The notes beneath the pieces were generated by a model, which saw only the letters and a program-made list of their open reading frames with translations, made no database searches and was not told where the DNA came from. Source: Escherichia coli (GTDB lineage Bacteria > Pseudomonadota > Gammaproteobacteria > Enterobacterales > Enterobacteriaceae). From it: a stretch of 64,000 nucleotides of DNA. Below, piece after piece: positions 31,156-42,198 of this stretch. The stretch's first letter is position 1, and each line of letters opens with the position of its first letter. The stretch is from NCBI RefSeq assembly GCF_003334405.1, contig NZ_QOWM01000001.1; one strand, 5' to 3'. The position numbers and the translations under genes are program-made.

Positions 31156-31173
31156 TTCCTACAATTGTAAGAC
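31156..31173. promoter_or_regulatory. EvgA-box-like inverted repeat upstream of yfdX
   Basis: TTCCTACA-AT-TGTAAGAC matches the EvgA consensus TTCPyTACA-N2-TGTAPuGAA. Confidence 0.5.
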
Positions 31174-31308
31174 TAAAATACTTCTTGCGATAATAACTAC
31201 AACTGTAAGATAACCCTTTCAAAATGACCGTTGCTCTCTGATTTCTCATTTCATGCTCACCCAATATGATGGCGGCGTTTTCTAAAACTGTTAAAGAATG
31301 AGGTAAGT

Positions 31309-31944
31309 ATGAAACGTTTAATTATGGCCACGATGGTCACAGCAATTCTGGCATCTTCAACTGTATGGGCTGCTGATAATGCTCCGGTAGCGGCACAACA
31401 GCAAACTCAGCAAGTTCAGCAAACCCAGAAAACGGCAGCGGCAGCAGAGCGTATCTCTGAACAAGGTTTATATGCGATGCGTGACGTGCAGGTAGCGCGC
31501 CTGGCTCTGTTTCATGGCGATCCAGAAAAGGCAAAAGAACTGACCAATGAAGCTTCCGCTTTGCTGTCAGATGACAGTACCGAATGGGCAAAGTTCGCTA
31601 AGCCAGGTAAAAAGACCAATCTCAATGATGACCAATATATTGTCATTAATGCATCTGTCGGAATTTCTGAGAGTTATGTAGCAACTCCCGAAAAAGAAGC
31701 CGCGATAAAAATTGCCAATGAAAAAATGGCGAAAGGGGATAAAAAGGGCGCAATGGAAGAGCTTCGCCTGGCCGGTGTTGGCGTAATGGAAAACCAATAT
31801 CTGATGCCACTTAAACAGACTCGTAATGCACTTGCTGATGCGCAGAAACTGCTTGATAAAAAGCAATACTACGAGGCAAACCTGGCGCTTAAAGGTGCGG
31901 AAGATGGAATCATCGTCGATAGCGAAGCACTGTTTGTGAACTAA
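31309..31944 (+). CDS. yfdX: Periplasmic protein YfdX (EvgA-regulated)
   Basis: 211 aa with signal peptide [21 protein letters not shown]. Confidence 0.85.
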
Positions 31945-32187
31945 TGCTGACAGGCAGTATATTGAGGTAAAGGATTTAACTCCCTCCAGCCGACAATTTT
32001 TTATGACCACAATACGACAGGTTGTGGTCATAAAATTATTTGGCGCTCGCGGTGCTATAAACTCGCATTTTATATTCCTCAAAGTAAACCGCAATAATCC
32101 CGTGTCATCACAAATCATTTATTATGTTATGTTTTATGGTACGCTTTAAAAAGCGTAATCATACCCTTGCTTGTAAATCACCGGCGC

Positions 32188-32205
32188 TTCTTACAGTTGT
32201 AAGAA
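32188..32205. promoter_or_regulatory. EvgA-box-like palindrome upstream of frc
   Basis: TTCTTACA-GT-TGTAAGAA, a near-perfect match to the EvgA box, about 250 bp upstream of frc. Confidence 0.55.
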
Positions 32206-32456: not shown

Positions 32457-33707
32457 ATGTCAACTCCACTTCAAGGAATTAAAGTTCTCGATTTCACCGG
32501 TGTGCAATCTGGCCCATCTTGTACTCAAATGCTGGCCTGGTTTGGCGCTGACGTTATTAAAATTGAACGTCCCGGCGTTGGTGACGTAACGCGTCACCAG
32601 CTGCGAGATATTCCTGATATCGATGCGCTTTACTTCACCATGCTTAACAGTAACAAACGTTCTATTGAGTTAAATACCAAAACAGCGGAAGGCAAAGAGG
32701 TAATGGAAAAGCTGATCCGCGAAGCTGATATCTTAGTCGAGAACTTTCATCCAGGGGCCATTGATCACATGGGCTTCACCTGGGAGCATATTCAAGAAAT
32801 CAATCCACGTCTGATTTTTGGTTCGATCAAAGGGTTTGATGAGTGTTCGCCTTATGTGAATGTAAAAGCCTATGAAAACGTTGCTCAGGCAGCGGGTGGC
32901 GCGGCATCCACTACGGGTTTTTGGGATGGTCCGCCGCTGGTAAGCGCTGCAGCGTTGGGTGACAGCAACACCGGAATGCATTTGCTGATCGGTTTACTTG
33001 CTGCTTTGCTGCATCGCGAAAAAACGGGGCGTGGGCAACGAGTCACCATGTCAATGCAGGATGCCGTATTGAACCTTTGCCGCGTGAAATTACGTGACCA
33101 GCAGCGTCTCGATAAATTGGGTTATCTGGAAGAATACCCGCAGTATCCGAATGGTACATTTGGTGATGCAGTTCCCCGCGGTGGTAATGCAGGTGGTGGC
33201 GGTCAGCCTGGCTGGATCCTGAAATGTAAAGGCTGGGAAACCGATCCTAACGCCTATATTTATTTCACTATTCAGGAGCAAAACTGGGAAAACACCTGTA
33301 AAGCCATCGGCAAACCAGAATGGATTACCGATCCGGCATACAGTACAGCCCATGCACGACAGCCACATATTTTCGATATTTTTGCTGAAATCGAAAAATA
33401 CACTGTCACTATTGATAAACATGAAGCGGTGGCCTATTTGACTCAGTTTGATATTCCTTGTGCACCGGTTTTAAGTATGAAAGAAATTTCACTTGATCCC
33501 TCTTTGCGCCAAAGTGGCAGTGTTGTTGAAGTGGAACAACCGTTGCGTGGAAAATATCTGACCGTTGGTTGTCCAATGAAATTCTCTGCCTTTACGCCGG
33601 ATATTAAAGCTGCGCCGCTATTAGGTGAACATACCGCTGCTGTATTGCAGGAGCTGGGTTATAGCGACGATGAAATTGCTGCAATGAAGCAAAACCACGC
33701 CATCTGA
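32457..33707 (+). CDS. frc: Formyl-CoA:oxalate CoA-transferase
   Basis: 416 aa; family III CoA-transferase N-terminus ([33 protein letters not shown]). Confidence 0.95.
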
Positions 33708-33760
33708 TATTAACGGGGGCTTCTGGCTCCCAATTTATAAAAATTTCGAGGTTATTAATC

Positions 33761-35455
33761 ATGTCAGATCAACTTCAAATGACAGATGGTATGCATATCA
33801 TCGTTGAAGCATTAAAACAGAATAATATTGACACTATTTATGGTGTTGTAGGTATTCCTGTGACGGATATGGCACGCCATGCCCAGGCGGAAGGCATTCG
33901 TTATATTGGTTTTCGTCATGAGCAGTCGGCAGGCTATGCCGCTGCGGCAAGCGGTTTTCTTACCCAAAAACCGGGGATCTGCCTGACAGTTTCTGCGCCA
34001 GGATTCCTCAATGGTTTGACCGCATTGGCCAACGCAACGGTAAATGGTTTTCCGATGATCATGATTAGCGGCTCCAGCGACCGCGCGATCGTCGACCTAC
34101 AGCAAGGTGATTATGAAGAGCTGGACCAAATGAATGCGGCAAAACCGTATGCCAAAGCAGCATTTCGCGTTAATCAGCCGCAGGATCTTGGCATTGCATT
34201 GGCACGCGCTATCCGGGTCTCTGTATCGGGTCGCCCTGGCGGAGTTTATCTTGATTTGCCAGCAAATGTCCTGGCCGCGACGATGGAAAAAGACGAAGCG
34301 TTAACCACGATTGTTAAAGTTGAAAATCCGTCGCCAGCATTATTGCCATGCCCGAAGTCAGTCACTAGCGCAATTTCGCTTTTAGCAAAAGCTGAACGGC
34401 CATTAATTATCCTTGGCAAAGGCGCGGCGTATTCACAAGCTGATGAACAGCTTCGTGAATTTATTGAAAGTGCTCAGATTCCATTCCTGCCAATGTCTAT
34501 GGCGAAAGGGATCCTTGAAGATACGCATCCACTTTCTGCGGCAGCTGCGCGTTCGTTTGCCCTGGCAAATGCTGACGTTGTCATGCTTGTTGGTGCACGA
34601 CTGAATTGGTTATTGGCACACGGTAAAAAAGGATGGGCGGCAGATACACAGTTTATTCAACTGGATATTGAACCGCAGGAAATTGACAGCAACCGCCCCA
34701 TTGCTGTGCCAGTCGTTGGTGATATTGCATCCAGTATGCAAGGTATGCTGGCAGAACTGAAACAAAACACATTTACGACTCCACTGGTATGGCGCGATAT
34801 TTTAAATATCCACAAGCAGCAAAATGCACAAAAAATGCATGAAAAATTAAGTACAGATACTCAACCATTAAATTACTTTAATGCATTAAGTGCTGTGCGC
34901 GACGTATTGCGCGAGAACCAGGATATTTATTTAGTTAATGAAGGTGCAAATACCCTGGATAATGCACGAAATATTATTGATATGTATAAACCACGTCGTC
35001 GTCTGGATTGTGGTACCTGGGGTGTCATGGGCATCGGTATGGGCTATGCCATCGGTGCTAGCGTGACTTCTGGTTCTCCGGTTGTCGCCATTGAAGGTGA
35101 TAGTGCTTTTGGTTTCAGTGGGATGGAAATTGAAACGATTTGTCGATATAACCTGCCGGTGACGATCGTTATTTTTAATAATGGCGGCATCTACAGAGGA
35201 GACGGTGTTGATCTCAGTGGCGCTGGTGCACCATCACCAACGGATCTGTTGCACCATGCAAGGTATGACAAATTAATGGATGCGTTTCGTGGCGTTGGCT
35301 ATAACGTCACCACGACAGATGAACTTCGTCATGCTTTAACCACCGGTATTCAGTCGCGCAAACCGACCATTATTAATGTGGTCATCGACCCTGCAGCAGG
35401 AACTGAAAGTGGCCATATTACCAAACTTAACCCAAAACAAGTCGCTGGTAATTAA
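33761..35455 (+). CDS. oxc: Oxalyl-CoA decarboxylase (ThDP-dependent)
   Basis: 564 aa; ThDP-binding region GDSAFGFSGMEIETICRYNLPVTIVIFNNGG. Confidence 0.95.
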   Translation: MSDQLQMTDGMHIIVEALKQNNIDTIYGVVGIPVTDMARHAQAEGIRYIGFRHEQSAGYAAAASGFLTQKPGICLTVSAPGFLNGLTALANATVNGFPMIMISGSSDRAIVDLQQGDYEELDQMNAAKPYAKAAFRVNQPQDLGIALARAIRVSVSGRPGGVYLDLPANVLAATMEKDEALTTIVKVENPSPALLPCPKSVTSAISLLAKAERPLIILGKGAAYSQADEQLREFIESAQIPFLPMSMAKGILEDTHPLSAAAARSFALANADVVMLVGARLNWLLAHGKKGWAADTQFIQLDIEPQEIDSNRPIAVPVVGDIASSMQGMLAELKQNTFTTPLVWRDILNIHKQQNAQKMHEKLSTDTQPLNYFNALSAVRDVLRENQDIYLVNEGANTLDNARNIIDMYKPRRRLDCGTWGVMGIGMGYAIGASVTSGSPVVAIEGDSAFGFSGMEIETICRYNLPVTIVIFNNGGIYRGDGVDLSGAGAPSPTDLLHHARYDKLMDAFRGVGYNVTTTDELRHALTTGIQSRKPTIINVVIDPAAGTESGHITKLNPKQVAGN

Positions 35456-35524
35456 ATACTGACATCGTCTCCTCTTGCCAACTCATTATGCGATGGTGAG
35501 GGGACCCTTATCGGAAATACTATT

Positions 35525-36469
35525 ATGCTAACATTTTTTATTGGCGATTTATTGCCTATTATCGTAATCATGCTGTTGGGTTATTTTAGCGGCAGACGAG
35601 AAACATTTTCAGAAGATCAAGCTCGGGCATTTAATAAACTGGTATTAAACTACGCGCTTCCTGCGGCTCTATTTGTATCTATTACTCGGGCAAACAGGGA
35701 AATGATTTTTGCGGACACTCGTCTGACCCTTGTATCACTTGTGGTTATTGTCGGATGTTTCTTTTTCTCCTGGTTCGGTTGCTACAAATTTTTTAAACGT
35801 ACCCATGCAGAAGCAGCTGTATGTGCATTAATTGCAGGTTCACCTACCATTGGATTCCTGGGGTTTGCAGTTCTCGATCCTATTTATGGTGATTCCGTAT
35901 CAACAGGTTTAGTGGTAGCAATTATTTCTATTATTGTTAACGCAATTACTATTCCTATTGGTCTGTATTTGCTGAATCCTTCTTCAGGAGCGGATGGTAA
36001 GAAGAATAGTAATCTGAGCGCATTAATTTCTGCGGCAAAGGAGCCAGTAGTATGGGCACCTGTTCTGGCAACGATCCTGGTGTTGGTTGGGGTAAAAATT
36101 CCGGCAGCATGGGACCCAACCTTTAATCTGATTGCGAAGGCTAACTCAGGGGTAGCGGTATTCGCTGCGGGGTTGACTCTGGCTGCACATAAATTCGAGT
36201 TCAGTGCCGAAATTGCTTATAACACCTTCCTGAAGCTGATTCTGATGCCACTGGCACTGCTTCTCGTTGGTATGGCATGTCATTTGAACAGCGAACATCT
36301 GCAGATGATGGTACTGGCAGGCGCATTACCGCCGGCATTCTCCGGAATCATTATTGCCAGCCGGTTTAATGTCTACACCCGTACTGGTACAGCGTCATTG
36401 GCTGTGAGCGTACTGGGCTTTGTCGTCACGGCTCCCTTGTGGATTTATGTCAGTCGACTGGTTTCATAA
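35525..36469 (+). CDS. yfdV: Putative AEC-family transporter
   Basis: 314 aa polytopic membrane protein in the frc-oxc operon. Confidence 0.85.
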
Positions 36470-36496
36470 TTAATCATGTTATTGATTTTACATAAA

Positions 36497-36527
36497 TGCC
36501 GAAGTGTCTTTTCACCTTCGGCTTTTT
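36497..36527 (+). terminator. Terminator-like hairpin between yfdV and yfdE
   Basis: gccgaag-tgtcttttcac-cttcggc followed by TTTTTTC, just upstream of the yfdE ATG at 36543. Confidence 0.4.
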
Positions 36528-36542
36528 TCAAGGCATAAGCAA

Positions 36543-37688
36543 ATGACAAATAATGAAAGCAAAGGGCCGTTTGAAGGCTTATTAGTTATCGATATGACAC
36601 ATGTCCTTAATGGACCTTTCGGAACTCAACTTCTTTGTAATATGGGCGCAAGGGTAATTAAAGTTGAGCCGCCGGGTCATGGTGATGATACCCGCACATT
36701 TGGTCCCTATGTGGATGGACAGTCACTCTATTACAGTTTTATTAATCATGGCAAAGAGAGTGTGGTTCTTGATTTAAAGAATGATCACGATAAAAGTATA
36801 TTTATAAATATGCTCAAACAAGCTGATGTATTAGCTGAGAATTTTCGCCCAGGTACAATGGAAAAACTGGGGTTTTCATGGGAAACGCTTCAAGAAATCA
36901 ACCCGCGCCTCATATATGCTTCATCGTCAGGTTTCGGACATACCGGTCCGCTAAAAGATGCTCCTGCCTACGATACCATCATTCAGGCAATGAGCGGGAT
37001 AATGATGGAAACAGGATATCCTGATGCTCCGCCAGTGCGCGTTGGTACATCTCTTGCGGATCTATGCGGCGGTGTCTATTTATTCAGCGGAATAGTGAGT
37101 GCACTTTATGGCCGCGAAAAGAGCCAGAGAGGGGCGCATGTCGATATAGCGATGTTTGATGCCACGCTGAGTTTTCTGGAGCATGGTCTGATGGCATATA
37201 TCGCAACTGGGAAGTCACCACAACGTCTGGGAAATCGCCATCCCTACATGGCACCTTTTGATGTTTTCAATACTCAGGATAAGCCGATTACGATTTGTTG
37301 TGGTAATGACAAGCTTTTTTCTGCGTTATGCCAGGCACTGGAGCTTACGGAACTGGTTAATGATCCCCGATTTAGCAGCAATATTTTACGCGTACAAAAC
37401 CAGGCTATTCTTAAACAATATATTGAGCGGACGTTAAAAACGCAGGCAGCTGAAGTTTGGTTAGCCAGAATACATGAAGTTGGTGTACCCGTCGCGCCGT
37501 TATTAAGTGTGGCTGAGGCCATTAAATTGCCACAAACTCAGGCGAGAAATATGTTGATTGAAGCCGGGGGAATAATGATGCCGGGTAATCCGATAAAAAT
37601 CAGCGGCTGCGCGGACCCGCATGTTATGCCGGGAGCGGCAACGCTCGACCAGCATGGGGAACAAATTCGCCAGGAGTTCTCATCATAA
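36543..37688 (+). CDS. yfdE: Acetyl-CoA:oxalate CoA-transferase (family III, Frc paralogue)
   Basis: ORF track from 36504; ATG at 36543 (MTNNESKGPFEGLLVIDMTH) gives 381 aa. Confidence 0.9.
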   Translation: MTNNESKGPFEGLLVIDMTHVLNGPFGTQLLCNMGARVIKVEPPGHGDDTRTFGPYVDGQSLYYSFINHGKESVVLDLKNDHDKSIFINMLKQADVLAENFRPGTMEKLGFSWETLQEINPRLIYASSSGFGHTGPLKDAPAYDTIIQAMSGIMMETGYPDAPPVRVGTSLADLCGGVYLFSGIVSALYGREKSQRGAHVDIAMFDATLSFLEHGLMAYIATGKSPQRLGNRHPYMAPFDVFNTQDKPITICCGNDKLFSALCQALELTELVNDPRFSSNILRVQNQAILKQYIERTLKTQAAEVWLARIHEVGVPVAPLLSVAEAIKLPQTQARNMLIEAGGIMMPGNPIKISGCADPHVMPGAATLDQHGEQIRQEFSS

Positions 37689-37743
37689 ATGTAAGATGTG
37701 CTGGTAAATAGCTCCCACATTTGAACATTGTGGGAGCCGCTAT

Positions 37744-40700
37744 TTAGTCATTTTTCTGACAGAAAACAGCAATCTCCTGGTCCAGCTCTGCAATGTGTTC
37801 TTTTACAGAGTTCAGCAACTGAAGAATTTCAGGCTTACTGTCATCTGAAACAGGTGTTATTTCTAACTGATGGCTAATATTAATCAACTTTTGCAAATTC
37901 AGGATGTTAGCCGCACCGTGGATGCGATGAATACACTGATGGAAAGTTCTGTTATCGCCAGCTTCTAGTGCTTGAAACGCAGCGGGTAGATCTTTATGCG
38001 TTTCATGCTGGAAAGTCATGAGAATCTCCTGCATCAGTTGTAGATCGTTCGCCGTATTATTTTTCAGGGCTTCGATATCAAGGTGGCGATACTGAGGTGC
38101 AATATGCGCAACTTGGTGTAACTGACTTAAATGTGTTTTCAGTACATCCAGGGTCAACGGTTTGAACAAACATAAGTTCATGCCGCAACTTAACCCTTTT
38201 TCACGTTCGTTAGCCTGTGCGTTGGCTGTAAGCCCCCAGATGGGTAAGGAAGAATTTTGCTCACGGAGTTTGCGAGTCAACTCAAAACCATCCATATTCG
38301 GCATATTAACGTCAGTAATAAGCAGATCATAATGTTGCATACTGACTTTGTGTAGCGCTTGCACACCATCAGTGGCTTCATCAACATCATATCCTAATAG
38401 ATTTAGCTGGCGTTTGAGTAATAGCCTGTTGGTCGGATGATCATCCGCGATTAATATGCTCAACTTTTCAGGTAGTGTGATGGGTTGTTCTGCTTTTGCC
38501 TCGACAGTCGCCACTTGCTGGCTAATTTCTACCGGGATTGTGATCGTAAATGTTGTTCCTATGCCTGGATGACTTTCTAATGACAAATCGCCCTGCATAT
38601 TTTTAATTAATTCTTTGCAGATCATTAAGCCTAAACCAGAACCTGTTTGCTGACGACCTGCACTTGTTTGGCTGTAGCGTTTAAACAGTTGTTGTTGTTC
38701 TTCCTGCGATAATCCACTTCCAGAATCCATAATCGTCATTTTGATAACAGCGTGGTTGTCATCAATGTGACCCAGGGAGGTCGTAATTTTTACTGCCCCC
38801 TCGGTGGTAAATTTGAGAGCATTACTCAGTAAATTTGATAAGACCTGCTTAAACGCCTGAGGGTCGATCTTAACCAGGTAATGTTCAGGAAACGTACTGC
38901 TGCAACTTAATGCGATCGATTTGCTTGCAGCAATCGCACCGAAAGAGTGACAAGTGTTCTGGACTAAAGTAGGGATATCGACCCATTGTGGTTGAAGTTG
39001 ATAGTTACCCGATTCAATTTTGTCGACATCAAGGATTTCACCAATTAAGCCGAGGAGTGATTGTCCGGTGGCGTAGGCAAGTGAAATCGCCTCCACCCGT
39101 TGCTCCTTGCTAAGACCAGAACCCGACAGAAGTTCCAGGAAGCCCATAATAGAGCTTATTGGTGTTCTTATTTCGTGACTCATCGTTGCCAGAAACTGAC
39201 TTTTTGCTACGGTAGCCTTTATCGCTTTATTTTTTTCTACCTCGAGTGCATTAATTAGATCACGCGTTTCAGTAATATCTTGCCAACCACAAATATATAC
39301 TGCATTGTCACTTGCAGGAAGATTGCATAATGTATGCCAGTGATTAATGCATCTTTTCTCGATGCCATTATCAATTTCAAATACCTGTGTGTATATTGTT
39401 CGATTTTCTTTCGTTTCTGCTGTGACTTCATGCGCATTAGAAAAAACATCTTTAAAGGGTGAGTCACTGTTTTCTAATGGTAACATTGCATTTTTGTAGT
39501 AATCCGCAGTGAAATAATGTTCAAAAGCACTATTATGACTAATGACATTACCTTGCCAGTTTACAACATAAGTTGGATTCGGTAAGGAATCCGAGAGTGC
39601 TTTTCGGAATGATATTTGGTTTTCTAAATCACCCTGAATGACTTTACGACGACGAACTGAGCGTAACAGGTAGAATCCCCATAAAAGGCTACTGCCAACT
39701 AATAAAACGGATAATGTCGTAACAATATAAAATTGCTCGCTATATAGGTCCCATGTGTCAATGGTCACATTGGGCATTTTAATCCATTTTTCCGTCAGGC
39801 GCAGAACTTCGCTTGGGGGAATTGCATTCAGTGCTTTATTAATAATATCCTTAAGTTCCGGTTCTCCGCGAGGAAAAGCGAACGAAAGCGATGCATTCGG
39901 AACGCCAGGAATAAGAAAATGATAAAGTTCATTAGGATAGTAATGATCGATCATGTAACGCGAATTTAGCTGTGTCGCGACCAGAGCATCAAGTTCACCT
40001 TCCTTAACCTTGTGAAATGCAGCGCTGGCATTATCGACCTGTATCCATTCAACCTCCGGATACATCTCTTTTAATTGCGAATGCAGCTCATAATAATATG
40101 GAATGGCAACTTTCATTCCTTTTTTTAATGTTTGTTCACTGTCAGGCGCTTTTTGCATGACAAAAACGTAAGGCGTTGTTATGAAGGCTTCAGCAAATAA
40201 AACATTATTTTCTCGATCTTCACTATAAATAGCGCCAGGTATTATATCCCATCCTCCGGGGCTAAGCTGTGTTCCAGCATGGATATTGTGTGAAACGGTG
40301 ATCGGAGAAAAATTTAAACCTGTTTGCAAGGTAATAATATTAAGAATGTCCCCCATAACGCCCCGAACCGAGCCATTTTCATCCGTCATAGAATAGGGGG
40401 GCGAGTAAGGATTTTCCAGCACCTTTAAATTGGGATGCTGCTTAATCCACTGTTTTTCATGTTCAGTGAGTTCTAATGGTTTGTTCAGAAAGGCCAGGTT
40501 TCCTGTATCAAGCCAATTTTGTGATACTTCATAGCGAACTTCATTTGTTAAAGCATCAACAAATCTATTGAGTACTTCATTAAGAATGACAGATTCTTTT
40601 CTGGTCAAGAAAAAATTATATTGACGCGGCGAGTTATAATATTTCACTACATTTAAGGAGTGAGTGAAATAGCGGGAAATCATACTGCTGGTAATGATGT

Positions 40701-41337
40701 TACTACCAATAAAGTAATCATTGTGCCCAGCTGAGACGGATGCTAATGCCTGATATAAATTTGTAAAAGAGATAATTGTTGCTTTTGGAAATGATTGATG
40801 AATTACCTCGTCTGGGGGGTAATTTGCTACCCGAGCAATATTTACTGGTTTTGGTGAGGTAAGCGGTCGCATTGAGTCGTGAAGGGTGGTTACCAGCGCC
40901 GGAAAGGTAATTATCAATGGTTTGGTTGCAGCAATGTCATTATTAAGAGGCGGCGAAGTAACTAAATGTGATAACACTATATCGACTTCACCTTCTGCAA
41001 GCGCGTCCATTGCTTTTTGATGATCTGCGTATTCCCGGAGTGTTAATTTGATATTTAACGCTCTTTTTAAAAGATTTAAATAATCAGCATTAATACCACG
41101 AACCCGTTGCTGCGAATCGGTATGCAACAACGTAGCCGTTTGGGACTTATGTACTGCAATCACAAGATTTTTTTTGCTCGCTAACCAACGTAATTCCTTG
41201 TTGCTCAGACGTAGTGGATCAAGTGTGACACGGTTGTTACTACTGATGCCACGATATTCGATGTAATCTTCGTCTGCGAAACTTATGGTCGACCAAAGAC
41301 CACAACAGAGAAGAAAAATATAGGGTAAAAACTTCAT
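37744..41337 (-). CDS. evgS: Hybrid sensor histidine kinase EvgS
   Basis: 1197 aa; periplasmic binding-protein-like domains, HisKA/HATPase, receiver and HPt domains. Confidence 0.95.
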   Translation of the reverse strand: MKFLPYIFLLCCGLWSTISFADEDYIEYRGISSNNRVTLDPLRLSNKELRWLASKKNLVIAVHKSQTATLLHTDSQQRVRGINADYLNLLKRALNIKLTLREYADHQKAMDALAEGEVDIVLSHLVTSPPLNNDIAATKPLIITFPALVTTLHDSMRPLTSPKPVNIARVANYPPDEVIHQSFPKATIISFTNLYQALASVSAGHNDYFIGSNIITSSMISRYFTHSLNVVKYYNSPRQYNFFLTRKESVILNEVLNRFVDALTNEVRYEVSQNWLDTGNLAFLNKPLELTEHEKQWIKQHPNLKVLENPYSPPYSMTDENGSVRGVMGDILNIITLQTGLNFSPITVSHNIHAGTQLSPGGWDIIPGAIYSEDRENNVLFAEAFITTPYVFVMQKAPDSEQTLKKGMKVAIPYYYELHSQLKEMYPEVEWIQVDNASAAFHKVKEGELDALVATQLNSRYMIDHYYPNELYHFLIPGVPNASLSFAFPRGEPELKDIINKALNAIPPSEVLRLTEKWIKMPNVTIDTWDLYSEQFYIVTTLSVLLVGSSLLWGFYLLRSVRRRKVIQGDLENQISFRKALSDSLPNPTYVVNWQGNVISHNSAFEHYFTADYYKNAMLPLENSDSPFKDVFSNAHEVTAETKENRTIYTQVFEIDNGIEKRCINHWHTLCNLPASDNAVYICGWQDITETRDLINALEVEKNKAIKATVAKSQFLATMSHEIRTPISSIMGFLELLSGSGLSKEQRVEAISLAYATGQSLLGLIGEILDVDKIESGNYQLQPQWVDIPTLVQNTCHSFGAIAASKSIALSCSSTFPEHYLVKIDPQAFKQVLSNLLSNALKFTTEGAVKITTSLGHIDDNHAVIKMTIMDSGSGLSQEEQQQLFKRYSQTSAGRQQTGSGLGLMICKELIKNMQGDLSLESHPGIGTTFTITIPVEISQQVATVEAKAEQPITLPEKLSILIADDHPTNRLLLKRQLNLLGYDVDEATDGVQALHKVSMQHYDLLITDVNMPNMDGFELTRKLREQNSSLPIWGLTANAQANEREKGLSCGMNLCLFKPLTLDVLKTHLSQLHQVAHIAPQYRHLDIEALKNNTANDLQLMQEILMTFQHETHKDLPAAFQALEAGDNRTFHQCIHRIHGAANILNLQKLINISHQLEITPVSDDSKPEILQLLNSVKEHIAELDQEIAVFCQKND

Positions 41338-41341
41338 GTGG

Positions 41342-41956
41342 TTAGCCGATTTTGTTACGTTGTGCGAATGTGTAAAGATCCATCAGTGATTTACATTCTA
41401 ATTTTTCCATCAGGCGACTTTTATAAGTGCTGACAGTTTTGTTGCTGATGAACATTTTTTCAGCAATGTCATTATTATCCTTGCCATCAAGAATATACCG
41501 CATGACACTAATTTCTTGTTTCGATAAGGAGTCGAGTTTTTGCTGGTCGGACGTTAAACTTCCAACAAACCGGTTGAGAGAGAAGGGGAAATAGCAGTAG
41601 CCATTTTTTGCAGCTTCAATAGCCGCAATGATATTGTTCATGCCTTCTTTTTTACTCACGAAACCATTAGCGCCAGCATCAGCACAATGTTTCCCGTAAA
41701 AATGGTCATTTTTAGCGGAGACGATAATAATAATTCCGCTATATTGGCGCTTCCTCAGCGTTTCTAACACCTGGATACCGTTAACTCCGGGGATATCGAC
41801 ATCAATGATGACGATATCAGGCTTAAGTGTTTCCACCCGCTGAACGGCACTTCCGCCTTCAGTCAACTCTGCTAAGATTTCAATATCGTTTTTGATCAAT
41901 AAATTACGAATTGCTGCGATAGCAAGAGGATGGTCATCAATAATTATTGCGTTCAT
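41342..41956 (-). CDS. evgA: Response regulator EvgA (NarL/LuxR family)
   Basis: 204 aa; receiver domain plus LuxR HTH (EISVMRYILDGKDNNDIAEKMFISNKTVSTYKSRLMEKL). Confidence 0.95.
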   Translation of the reverse strand: MNAIIIDDHPLAIAAIRNLLIKNDIEILAELTEGGSAVQRVETLKPDIVIIDVDIPGVNGIQVLETLRKRQYSGIIIIVSAKNDHFYGKHCADAGANGFVSKKEGMNNIIAAIEAAKNGYCYFPFSLNRFVGSLTSDQQKLDSLSKQEISVMRYILDGKDNNDIAEKMFISNKTVSTYKSRLMEKLECKSLMDLYTFAQRNKIG

Positions 41957-42180: not shown

Positions 42181-42198
42181 ATCCTACAGGCGTAAGAA
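42181..42198. promoter_or_regulatory. EvgA-box-like site in the evgA-emrK divergent region
   Basis: ATCCTACA-GG-CGTAAGAA, two mismatches to the consensus. Confidence 0.45.

Follow-up and report, generated by a model that had tools for sequence, protein, structure and literature searches.

A terminator-like hairpin between yfdV and yfdE, a probable partial terminator within the EvgA-activated frc operon of Escherichia coli

Partial intrinsic terminators located within operons are well established in E. coli, with the rplL-rpoB attenuator and the T1 terminator of rpsU-dnaG as familiar examples. Internal terminators have been catalogued genome-wide (Conway et al., 2014; PMC4161252), and another kind of intercistronic element, the protective stem-loop, has been described for malE-malF and papB-papA as well as for the consecutive hairpins of menBCE (PMC5927463). 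Here we analyse a hairpin followed by a U-tract in the gap between yfdV and yfdE, a site that no paper found in our literature search describes. We propose that hairpin and U-tract are most likely an ordinary means of tuning gene dosage inside an operon, partly stopping transcription before yfdE.

The site lies in a 64-kb window (the whole stretch of DNA analysed), and the 401-nt stretch around it has 100% identity to K-12. Of 5426 complete E. coli genomes, 5405 contain this stretch, hairpin and T-run included. Gene names and coordinates are those of the RefSeq annotation of the K-12 stretch identical to the window, together with the list of open reading frames:

31309-31944, plus strand: yfdX
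32457-33707, plus strand: frc
33761-35455, plus strand: oxc
35525-36469, plus strand: yfdV, with its TAA stop codon at 36467-36469 (also in the list of open reading frames)
36543-37688, plus strand: yfdE, with its ATG start codon at 36543-36545, 20 nt 3' of the stem
37744-41337, minus strand: evgS, convergent with yfdE
41342-41956, minus strand: evgA

The initial annotation of this DNA had named frc, oxc, yfdV and yfdE in this order, and the RefSeq annotation agrees, with the convergent evgS next; the 73-bp gap that it placed upstream of the yfdE ATG is confirmed by the yfdV stop and yfdE start codons, which delimit 73 nt at 36470-36542. Its description of a GC-rich hairpin and then a T-run is likewise borne out by the sequence and by RNAfold, with both found at 36498-36528, and the interval it gave was right to within one base, 36497 lying one base 5' of the stem and 36545 being the last base of the ATG.

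On the same strand (plus) as yfdV, and starting 28 nt downstream of the yfdV TAA, the hairpin at 36498-36522 reads GCCGAAGUG-UCUUUU-CA(C)CUUCGGC and has a dG of -11.2 kcal/mol for the hairpin alone. Its parts and immediate surroundings are as follows:

36470-36497, plus strand: AU-rich, unstructured spacer from the yfdV stop to the hairpin, read from the sequence
36484-36489, plus strand: GA/UUUU match to the RNase E motif, 12 nt 5' of the stem, a putative cleavage site
36498-36506, plus strand: 5' arm of the hairpin, GCCGAAGTG, from the folds
36507-36512, plus strand: hairpin loop of 6 nt, TCTTTT, from the fold
36513-36522, plus strand: 3' arm of the hairpin, CACCTTCGGC, with C36515 bulged, from the folds
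36523-36528, plus strand: U-tract of six T's, directly abutting the stem after C36522, read from the sequence
36530-36534, plus strand: probable yfdE Shine-Dalgarno sequence AAGGC, assigned by inspection and unpaired in the gap-alone fold

The stem comprises 7 + 2 bp, with G-C in five of the seven lower pairs, and a single C separates the T6 run from the probable Shine-Dalgarno sequence. A d'Aubenton-Carafa-type score of 5.01 was obtained for the 15-nt tail. RNAfold recovers the hairpin in both the MFE and the centroid structure, whether the gap alone or a 181-nt context is folded; the gap-alone fold (74 nt) has a z of -2.5, with 3 of 200 shuffles folding equally well. Read on the opposite strand, the stem has only AUUUAUGU after it, a poor U-tail, so that the element is oriented with yfdV, and within several kilobases the only copies of CTTCGGC are the two hairpin arms. 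Stem, abutting U-tract and orientation, which together make up the full set of sequence-level hallmarks of a Rho-independent terminator, are all present, and mark the site as a putative one.

Because the hairpin appears in the MFE and centroid structures of the 181-nt context and has no Rfam match, the element is probably constitutive and not switchable. An antiterminator or riboswitch reading was rejected on the same basis, there being no competing fold in the 181-nt context and no Rfam match. Membership of a known structured RNA family was also ruled out: a scan against Rfam 15 gave chance-level matches only and none above the gathering score, the best overlap being with rseX, which reached 22.5 bits (E = 9.8) where the gathering score is 50.

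Scanning both strands of the window with the site's own dG and tail score as thresholds returned seven sites this good, compared with a mean of 0.2 per shuffle over 30 dinucleotide-preserving shuffles, or ~35-fold, a count that is illustrative and not a formal p-value because the thresholds were picked after the site had been seen. The yfdV-yfdE hairpin is the weakest of these seven strict matches, and it is the only canonical hairpin with a U-tract within the frc-evgS region. When the gap alone was shuffled, an equally good hairpin arose in 2 of 60 and in 0 of 40 trials. A simple terminator scan did not report the site, since that scan permits no bulge and no loop longer than 8 nt, and the stem without a gap is 7 bp long and closes a loop of 11 nt. 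A hairpin scan ranked by dG alone was dominated by long hairpins within coding regions.

Across E. coli genomes, hairpin and T-run are almost invariant. The 43-nt block that holds them (36492-36534) is exact in 5285 of 5406 records, compared with 4718 of 5406 for the 43-nt block of the upstream flank (36449-36491) and 3371 of 5406 for that of the downstream flank (36535-36577), a comparison that is directional only, as the records are phylogenetically non-independent and BLAST trims terminal mismatches. Four of the six variant sequences that we read are changed outside the hairpin and T-run; the two hairpin variants, T36507C in the loop and A36503G in the 5' arm (A-U to G.U), both keep the pairing. 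In strain ETEC1701, an IS200C element is inserted exactly 3' of the T-run. The 43-nt hairpin block occurs once per genome in the median and three times at most; being single-copy, it is not a dispersed repeat, and its copy number speaks against a REP/BIME element.

Orthologous gaps were gathered through a species-level genome scan, which yielded few Escherichia relatives, and from contigs encoding YfdE homologues of 74-97% identity, giving 13 distinct gaps that were scored against shuffles and three further loci that were added later. Of the 13 scored gaps, locus L045 is the exception; the other 12 each carry a strong single hairpin, with a dG between -10 and -26, that was equalled in no more than 2 of 60 shuffles. 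All three later loci have a hairpin too. The strongest hairpin ends 13-25 nt 5' of the yfdE start in every hairpin-bearing locus except L049, which has three hairpins, the last of them ending 20 nt 5' of the start. The stems belong to about 11 unrelated sequence types; the stem-loop thus appears to be kept by position, not by sequence. A protein operator is an unlikely reading of the inverted repeat, given that the orthologous hairpins share position but not sequence. Double changes that preserve pairing are seen in the Yersinia vastinensis copy, which is of the E. coli type (ACCGAAGTA...TACTTCGGT) and has two G-C to A-U changes relative to the window along with a T8 run, and in L059, of the Klebsiella sp. 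BIGb0407 type, which has one A-U to G-C change.

The U-tract is distributed far more narrowly than the stem. Runs of at least six T's after the stem occur in the E. coli type alone, as T6, T7 (L010) or T8 (L002); L049, with a stem tail of ATTTTTAC, was counted as the only other locus with a U-tract. The remaining orthologous gaps have none, the Klebsiella-type hairpin (CAGTCAGGGAT...ATCCCTGACTG) being one such case. With the U-tract confined in this way to the E. coli type, the part that defines a terminator would be specific to one lineage, and because most orthologues keep the stem but have no U-tract, termination alone is probably not what the stem-loop is conserved for. Its ancestral and still shared role would more likely lie in RNA processing or stability, or else in insulation of the ribosome-binding site.

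The yfdV-yfdE gap is not the only one in the operon to harbour a hairpin. The initial annotation overlooked that all three intercistronic gaps do, and likewise that most orthologous yfdV-yfdE hairpins come without a U-tract. The other hairpins of the region are:

33715-33731, plus strand: hairpin of the frc-oxc gap, GGGGGCTTCTGGCTCCC, dG -9.8, ending 29 nt before the oxc ATG, with no U-tract
35467-35505, plus strand: hairpin of the oxc-yfdV gap, GTCTCCTC...GAGGGGAC, dG -15.6, ending 19 nt before the yfdV ATG, with no U-tract
37711-37737, no strand assigned: hairpin of 9 bp in the gap where yfdE and evgS converge, its tails only weakly U-rich on both strands

None of 40 shuffles gave a hairpin as good as that of the oxc-yfdV gap. 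Of 13 orthologous loci, 12 have a counterpart of it at the same place, and in 10 of them no more than 1 of 40 shuffles did as well; the frc-oxc hairpin has a counterpart at the same place in all orthologous loci reaching that gap. The orthologous hairpins of these two gaps end 16-29 nt before the next start, a few of them being no better than shuffles. MAFFT followed by RNAalifold on the oxc-yfdV gaps gave no consensus structure, the alignment not being a structural one. Over all three operon gaps, the hairpins end 13-29 nt before the next start codon, and their distance from the upstream stop varies more, from about 15 to 99 nt. The operon end appears, from its predicted hairpin and tails, less terminator-like than the internal yfdV-yfdE site. 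As a control, we examined nine further gaps of 40-160 nt between co-directional genes of this K-12 region. In five of these, among them xapA-xapB and the one following xapB, a hairpin outdoes nearly every shuffle; mid-size gaps between same-strand genes thus commonly carry a hairpin in E. coli, and having one is not peculiar to this locus.

PMC3720670, citing Masuda & Church, describes yfdWUVE as one EvgA-activated, co-expressed unit and has EvgA also activating yfdX. According to PMC3720670, EvgA binds inverted repeats upstream of yfdX and yfdWUVE, and YfdE has the accessory role of a priming enzyme. An array that compared the evgS-constitutive S600I mutant with wild type gave log2 changes of 8.37 for frc, 6.97 for yfdX, 6.59 for oxc, 6.16 for yfdV and 3.57 for yfdE (PMC4283999 Table S4). 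Induction of yfdE is ~12-fold, yet ~6-fold less than that of yfdV, the biggest step along the operon; these are fold changes from one study, not absolute levels, and the yfdE ratio would come out lower too if its basal or background signal were higher. The same array shows a 3.4-fold step from frc to oxc, at a gap without a U-tract. We searched for EvgA boxes with a pattern that we take to be the consensus of the EvgA literature; its only matches are two before yfdX (31156 and 31194), one before frc (32188) and one in the evgA-emrK region (42181), with none upstream of yfdE. The match before frc is perfect:

32188-32205, plus strand: EvgA-box match TTCTTACAGTTGTAAGAA, upstream of frc, from the pattern search

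Furthermore, a promoter consensus scan found no sigma-70-like site placed to serve yfdE, the nearest match (36525-36554) being one that would initiate inside the gene. Since yfdE is induced without an EvgA box or promoter of its own, read-through across the hairpin is the simplest source of its transcripts. With neither an EvgA box nor a usable promoter before yfdE, and with yfdE co-induced ~12-fold, we set aside the earlier suggestion that the hairpin separates yfdE expression. The other suggestion of the initial annotation, that read-through from frc-oxc-yfdV is attenuated, fits both the terminator anatomy and the lower array induction of yfdE; termination itself, and with it its efficiency and a role in RNA stability, is what we infer. 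Two Term-seq supplements (Adams 2021 and TERMITe) list no 3' end for the yfdV-yfdE gap; the probable reason is that standard media leave the operon silent. What the Adams 2021 supplement does list is a site at 2488340(+), antisense in yfdE, apparently in its bicyclomycin (Rho-dependent) table.

With anatomy, non-random occurrence, conservation and lower yfdE induction all directly observed, we consider the element a probable Rho-independent terminator, constitutive and leaky, within the EvgA-activated frc-oxc-yfdV-yfdE unit, one that would also act as a nuclease-resistant stem-loop. RNA polymerase starting from the EvgA-dependent frc promoter would transcribe through yfdV, the nascent GCCGAAGUG/CACCUUCGGC hairpin would form as the active site holds the weak rU-dA hybrid of U6, and many of the complexes would then release their RNA. 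The remaining polymerases would read through to produce yfdE mRNA, leaving yfdE co-regulated at a lower level, which fits the proposed accessory role of YfdE in priming oxalyl-CoA formation. The stem-loop could additionally give the terminated or processed frc-oxc-yfdV RNA an exonuclease-resistant 3' end and, on read-through RNA, would border the ribosome-binding region of yfdE on its 5' side, leaving the Shine-Dalgarno sequence uncovered. Counting against this reading are the modest predicted stem (dG -11.2, one bulge), the predominance among orthologous gaps of predicted hairpins without a U-tract, and the fact that the array compares ratios, among them a 3.4-fold drop from frc to oxc without a U-tract.

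It is possible, although we think it rather unlikely, that the stem-loop serves chiefly in mRNA processing or stability, as an element of the malE-malF or papB-papA type to which the U-tract adds little termination and in which differential decay accounts for the lower yfdE. After endonucleolytic cleavage, the hairpin could block 3'-5' exonucleases and so stabilise frc-oxc-yfdV; alternatively, RNase E could cut the AU-rich spacer, leaving the hairpin as a protective 5' stem-loop of the yfdE mRNA, and indeed the GA/UUUU sequence 12 nt 5' of the stem is a match to the RNase E motif, defined as RN/WUU (PMC5927463). The recurrence of a strong hairpin in 12 of 13 orthologous gaps, with mostly unrelated sequence and in most cases no U-tract, speaks for such a role, and three more loci agree; so do the hairpins at all three operon junctions, and both consecutive protective hairpins and 5' stem-loops beside RNase E sites are documented in E. 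coli operons (PMC5927463). What speaks against it is the perfect U6-U8 tract conserved in the E. coli lineage, for which protective hairpins have no need. A role in processing or stability and one in termination are not mutually exclusive. We find it improbable that the element instead serves yfdE translation, with the hairpin insulating the ribosome-binding site and the U-run offering a landing site to ribosomal protein S1, which acts at U-rich leaders. The hairpins are anchored to the downstream start (13-29 nt) in all three gaps, with upstream distances of ~15-99 nt, and the Shine-Dalgarno sequence is unpaired in the gap-alone fold, as such insulation would have it, but the anchoring may merely reflect gap compaction up to the edge of the 30S footprint; moreover, the U-run is absent in most orthologues, and the weaker induction of yfdE than of yfdV is left unexplained.

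That an efficient terminator ends a frc-oxc-yfdV operon, with yfdE as a separate unit under its own promoter, would suit the finding that this is the only canonical hairpin with a U-tract in the frc-evgS region and that the post-yfdE hairpin is without a good one. We nevertheless hold it to be very improbable: just 20 nt separate stem and ATG, no usable promoter is present (the match at 36525-36554 would start inside yfdE), yfdE is induced ~12-fold in the evgS-constitutive mutant despite having no nearby EvgA box, and yfdWUVE are co-expressed according to the literature (PMC3720670). A functionless chance inverted repeat is hardly credible. Short intergenic hairpins are common, as seen from the five of nine nearby mid-size same-strand gaps that have one, but a hairpin with an abutting U6 is ~35-fold above shuffles in the illustrative window count, the block is better conserved than both of its flanks, compensatory changes occur in two lineages, and a hairpin recurs in 12 of 13 orthologous gaps.

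Beyond the single site, we tentatively raise the possibility that the operon as a whole is punctuated, with a stem-loop at each junction that holds its position 13-29 nt before the next start codon across Enterobacterales although its sequence turns over, its conserved task being to process the mRNA into units that differ in stability or translatability, and with the U-tract of the E. coli lineage having made the last of these a partial terminator. If a large share of transcription does terminate there, this would account for a lower output of YfdE, the acetyl-CoA:oxalate CoA-transferase thought to prime oxalate breakdown, than of Frc, Oxc and YfdV, although one EvgA-controlled promoter serves all four. 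The transcription-unit map of an operon in a model organism, missing so far from searchable 3'-end data, would be refined as well. The comparative pattern may offer a small example of how operon-internal dosage signals evolve, with hairpins that are positional and a U-tract gained in one lineage. The current understanding of termination is unchanged by a site of so well-known a kind, which should not surprise a specialist.

Compared with described systems, the site shares with regulated attenuators and riboswitch expression platforms the placement of a terminator hairpin immediately 5' of a coding sequence; unlike them, it comes without an antiterminator, leader peptide or Rfam family, and what lies upstream is the 3' end of a translated gene. 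Its likeness to malE-malF, papB-papA and menBCE is greater, extending to a stable intercistronic hairpin, hairpins at several junctions of one operon, structure kept across species and, as far as array fold changes indicate, a transcript abundance that falls along the operon. However, the malE-malF element is a REP repeat and the yfdV-yfdE hairpin is single-copy, and the latter carries the canonical U-tract that sets it apart from protective stem-loops. It differs from the intra-operon partial terminators in being a predicted terminator with a shorter, bulged stem, and in belonging to an operon that is silent in laboratory conditions and missing from searchable 3'-end maps. Like those terminators, it combines a GC-rich stem with a U-tract between co-directional genes of one transcription unit, with no antiterminator fold apparent and with a downstream gene that is co-regulated and, by its array induction, probably expressed at a lower level.

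A stem-loop is also found in the frc-oxc gap, so that, together with the hairpins of the oxc-yfdV and yfdV-yfdE gaps, every junction of the frc-oxc-yfdV-yfdE operon carries one. The frc-oxc and oxc-yfdV hairpins are listed below with the EvgA-box matches and with the hairpins that lie outside the operon junctions, downstream of yfdX and beyond yfdE.

Hairpins and EvgA-box matches around the operon, which lies on the + strand (window positions)
31156-31173, EvgA-box match before yfdX
31194-31211, EvgA-box match before yfdX
31999-32035, long AT-rich hairpin TTTTATGACCACAA...TTGTGGTCATAAAA, then TTATTT, just downstream of yfdX
32188-32205, perfect EvgA-box match before frc
33715-33731, hairpin GGGGGCTTCTGGCTCCC in the frc-oxc gap, 29 nt upstream of the oxc start
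35467-35505, strong hairpin GTCTCCTC...GAGGGGAC in the oxc-yfdV gap, dG -15.6
37711-37737, 9-bp hairpin GCTCCCACA...TGTGGGAGC in the yfdE-evgS convergent gap
42181-42198, EvgA-box match in the evgA-emrK intergenic region

The oxc-yfdV hairpin, which is followed by no U-tract, recurs in 12 of 13 orthologous loci and scores better than nearly all of the shuffled controls in 10 (the gap was examined also in L002, L003, L010, L039-L050 and L057-L059). Almost always the 5' arm is C-rich (CCCCTC-like) and the 3' arm G-rich (GAGGGG-like), and the hairpin ends 16-22 nt before the yfdV start across orthologous loci. It looks like a homologous, covarying structure. MAFFT/RNAalifold analysis of the oxc-yfdV gaps returned no consensus structure, because the MAFFT alignment is not a structural one. 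For the frc-oxc hairpin, a counterpart in the same place is visible in all the orthologous loci whose sequence extends to the gap (L002, L003, L010, L013 and L057-L059); scoring against shuffles covered three of these loci only, and in one of them, L057, the result was not significant (8/40).

At the yfdV-yfdE junction, the E. coli strain ETEC1701 (NZ_CP122938.1) carries an IS200C element inserted exactly where the T-run ends (equivalent to window 36528/36529), with tnpA on the + strand and no target duplication, so that the hairpin and the ribosome-binding site of yfdE are no longer adjacent. Among 5406 records, about 18 cover less than 80% of a 55-nt query spanning this junction, and these may carry similar disruptions.

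Beyond yfdE, the convergent-gap hairpin has weak U-rich tails on both strands, and yfdE and evgS therefore end without a canonical intrinsic terminator. The supplement of Adams 2021 places a site at K-12 coordinate 2488340(+), inside yfdE and antisense to it, in what looks like the bicyclomycin (Rho-dependent) table, which would suggest that evgS transcription enters yfdE and is stopped by Rho. Elsewhere in the window, a terminator-like bidirectional hairpin, AAAGCGCC...GGCGCTTT, flanked by a T-run on either strand, occurs in two identical copies ~156 nt apart (about 5905-5930 and 6060-6085); the broadly corresponding part of the K-12 genome is annotated with a tRNA cluster (Val, Val, Lys) and an RtT sRNA.

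The 18-bp EvgA-box consensus has four matches at 0-3 mismatches against 0.59 expected. About 250 nt separate the perfect box from the frc ATG that follows it, a distance that implies a long 5' leader or, alternatively, a distant activator site. The AT-rich hairpin downstream of yfdX is probably the yfdX terminator, setting this gene apart from the frc unit.

A Yersinia vastinensis genome assembly (IP38594, L002) encodes yfdV and yfdE products that share 93% and 90% protein identity with those of E. coli, and its yfdV-yfdE gap holds a hairpin of the E. coli type followed by T8. The L057 contig has the same gap sequence, with an evgS-like kinase gene convergent downstream. Because this similarity to E. 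coli is far above expectation for Yersinia, the sequences suggest that the whole island was horizontally transferred.
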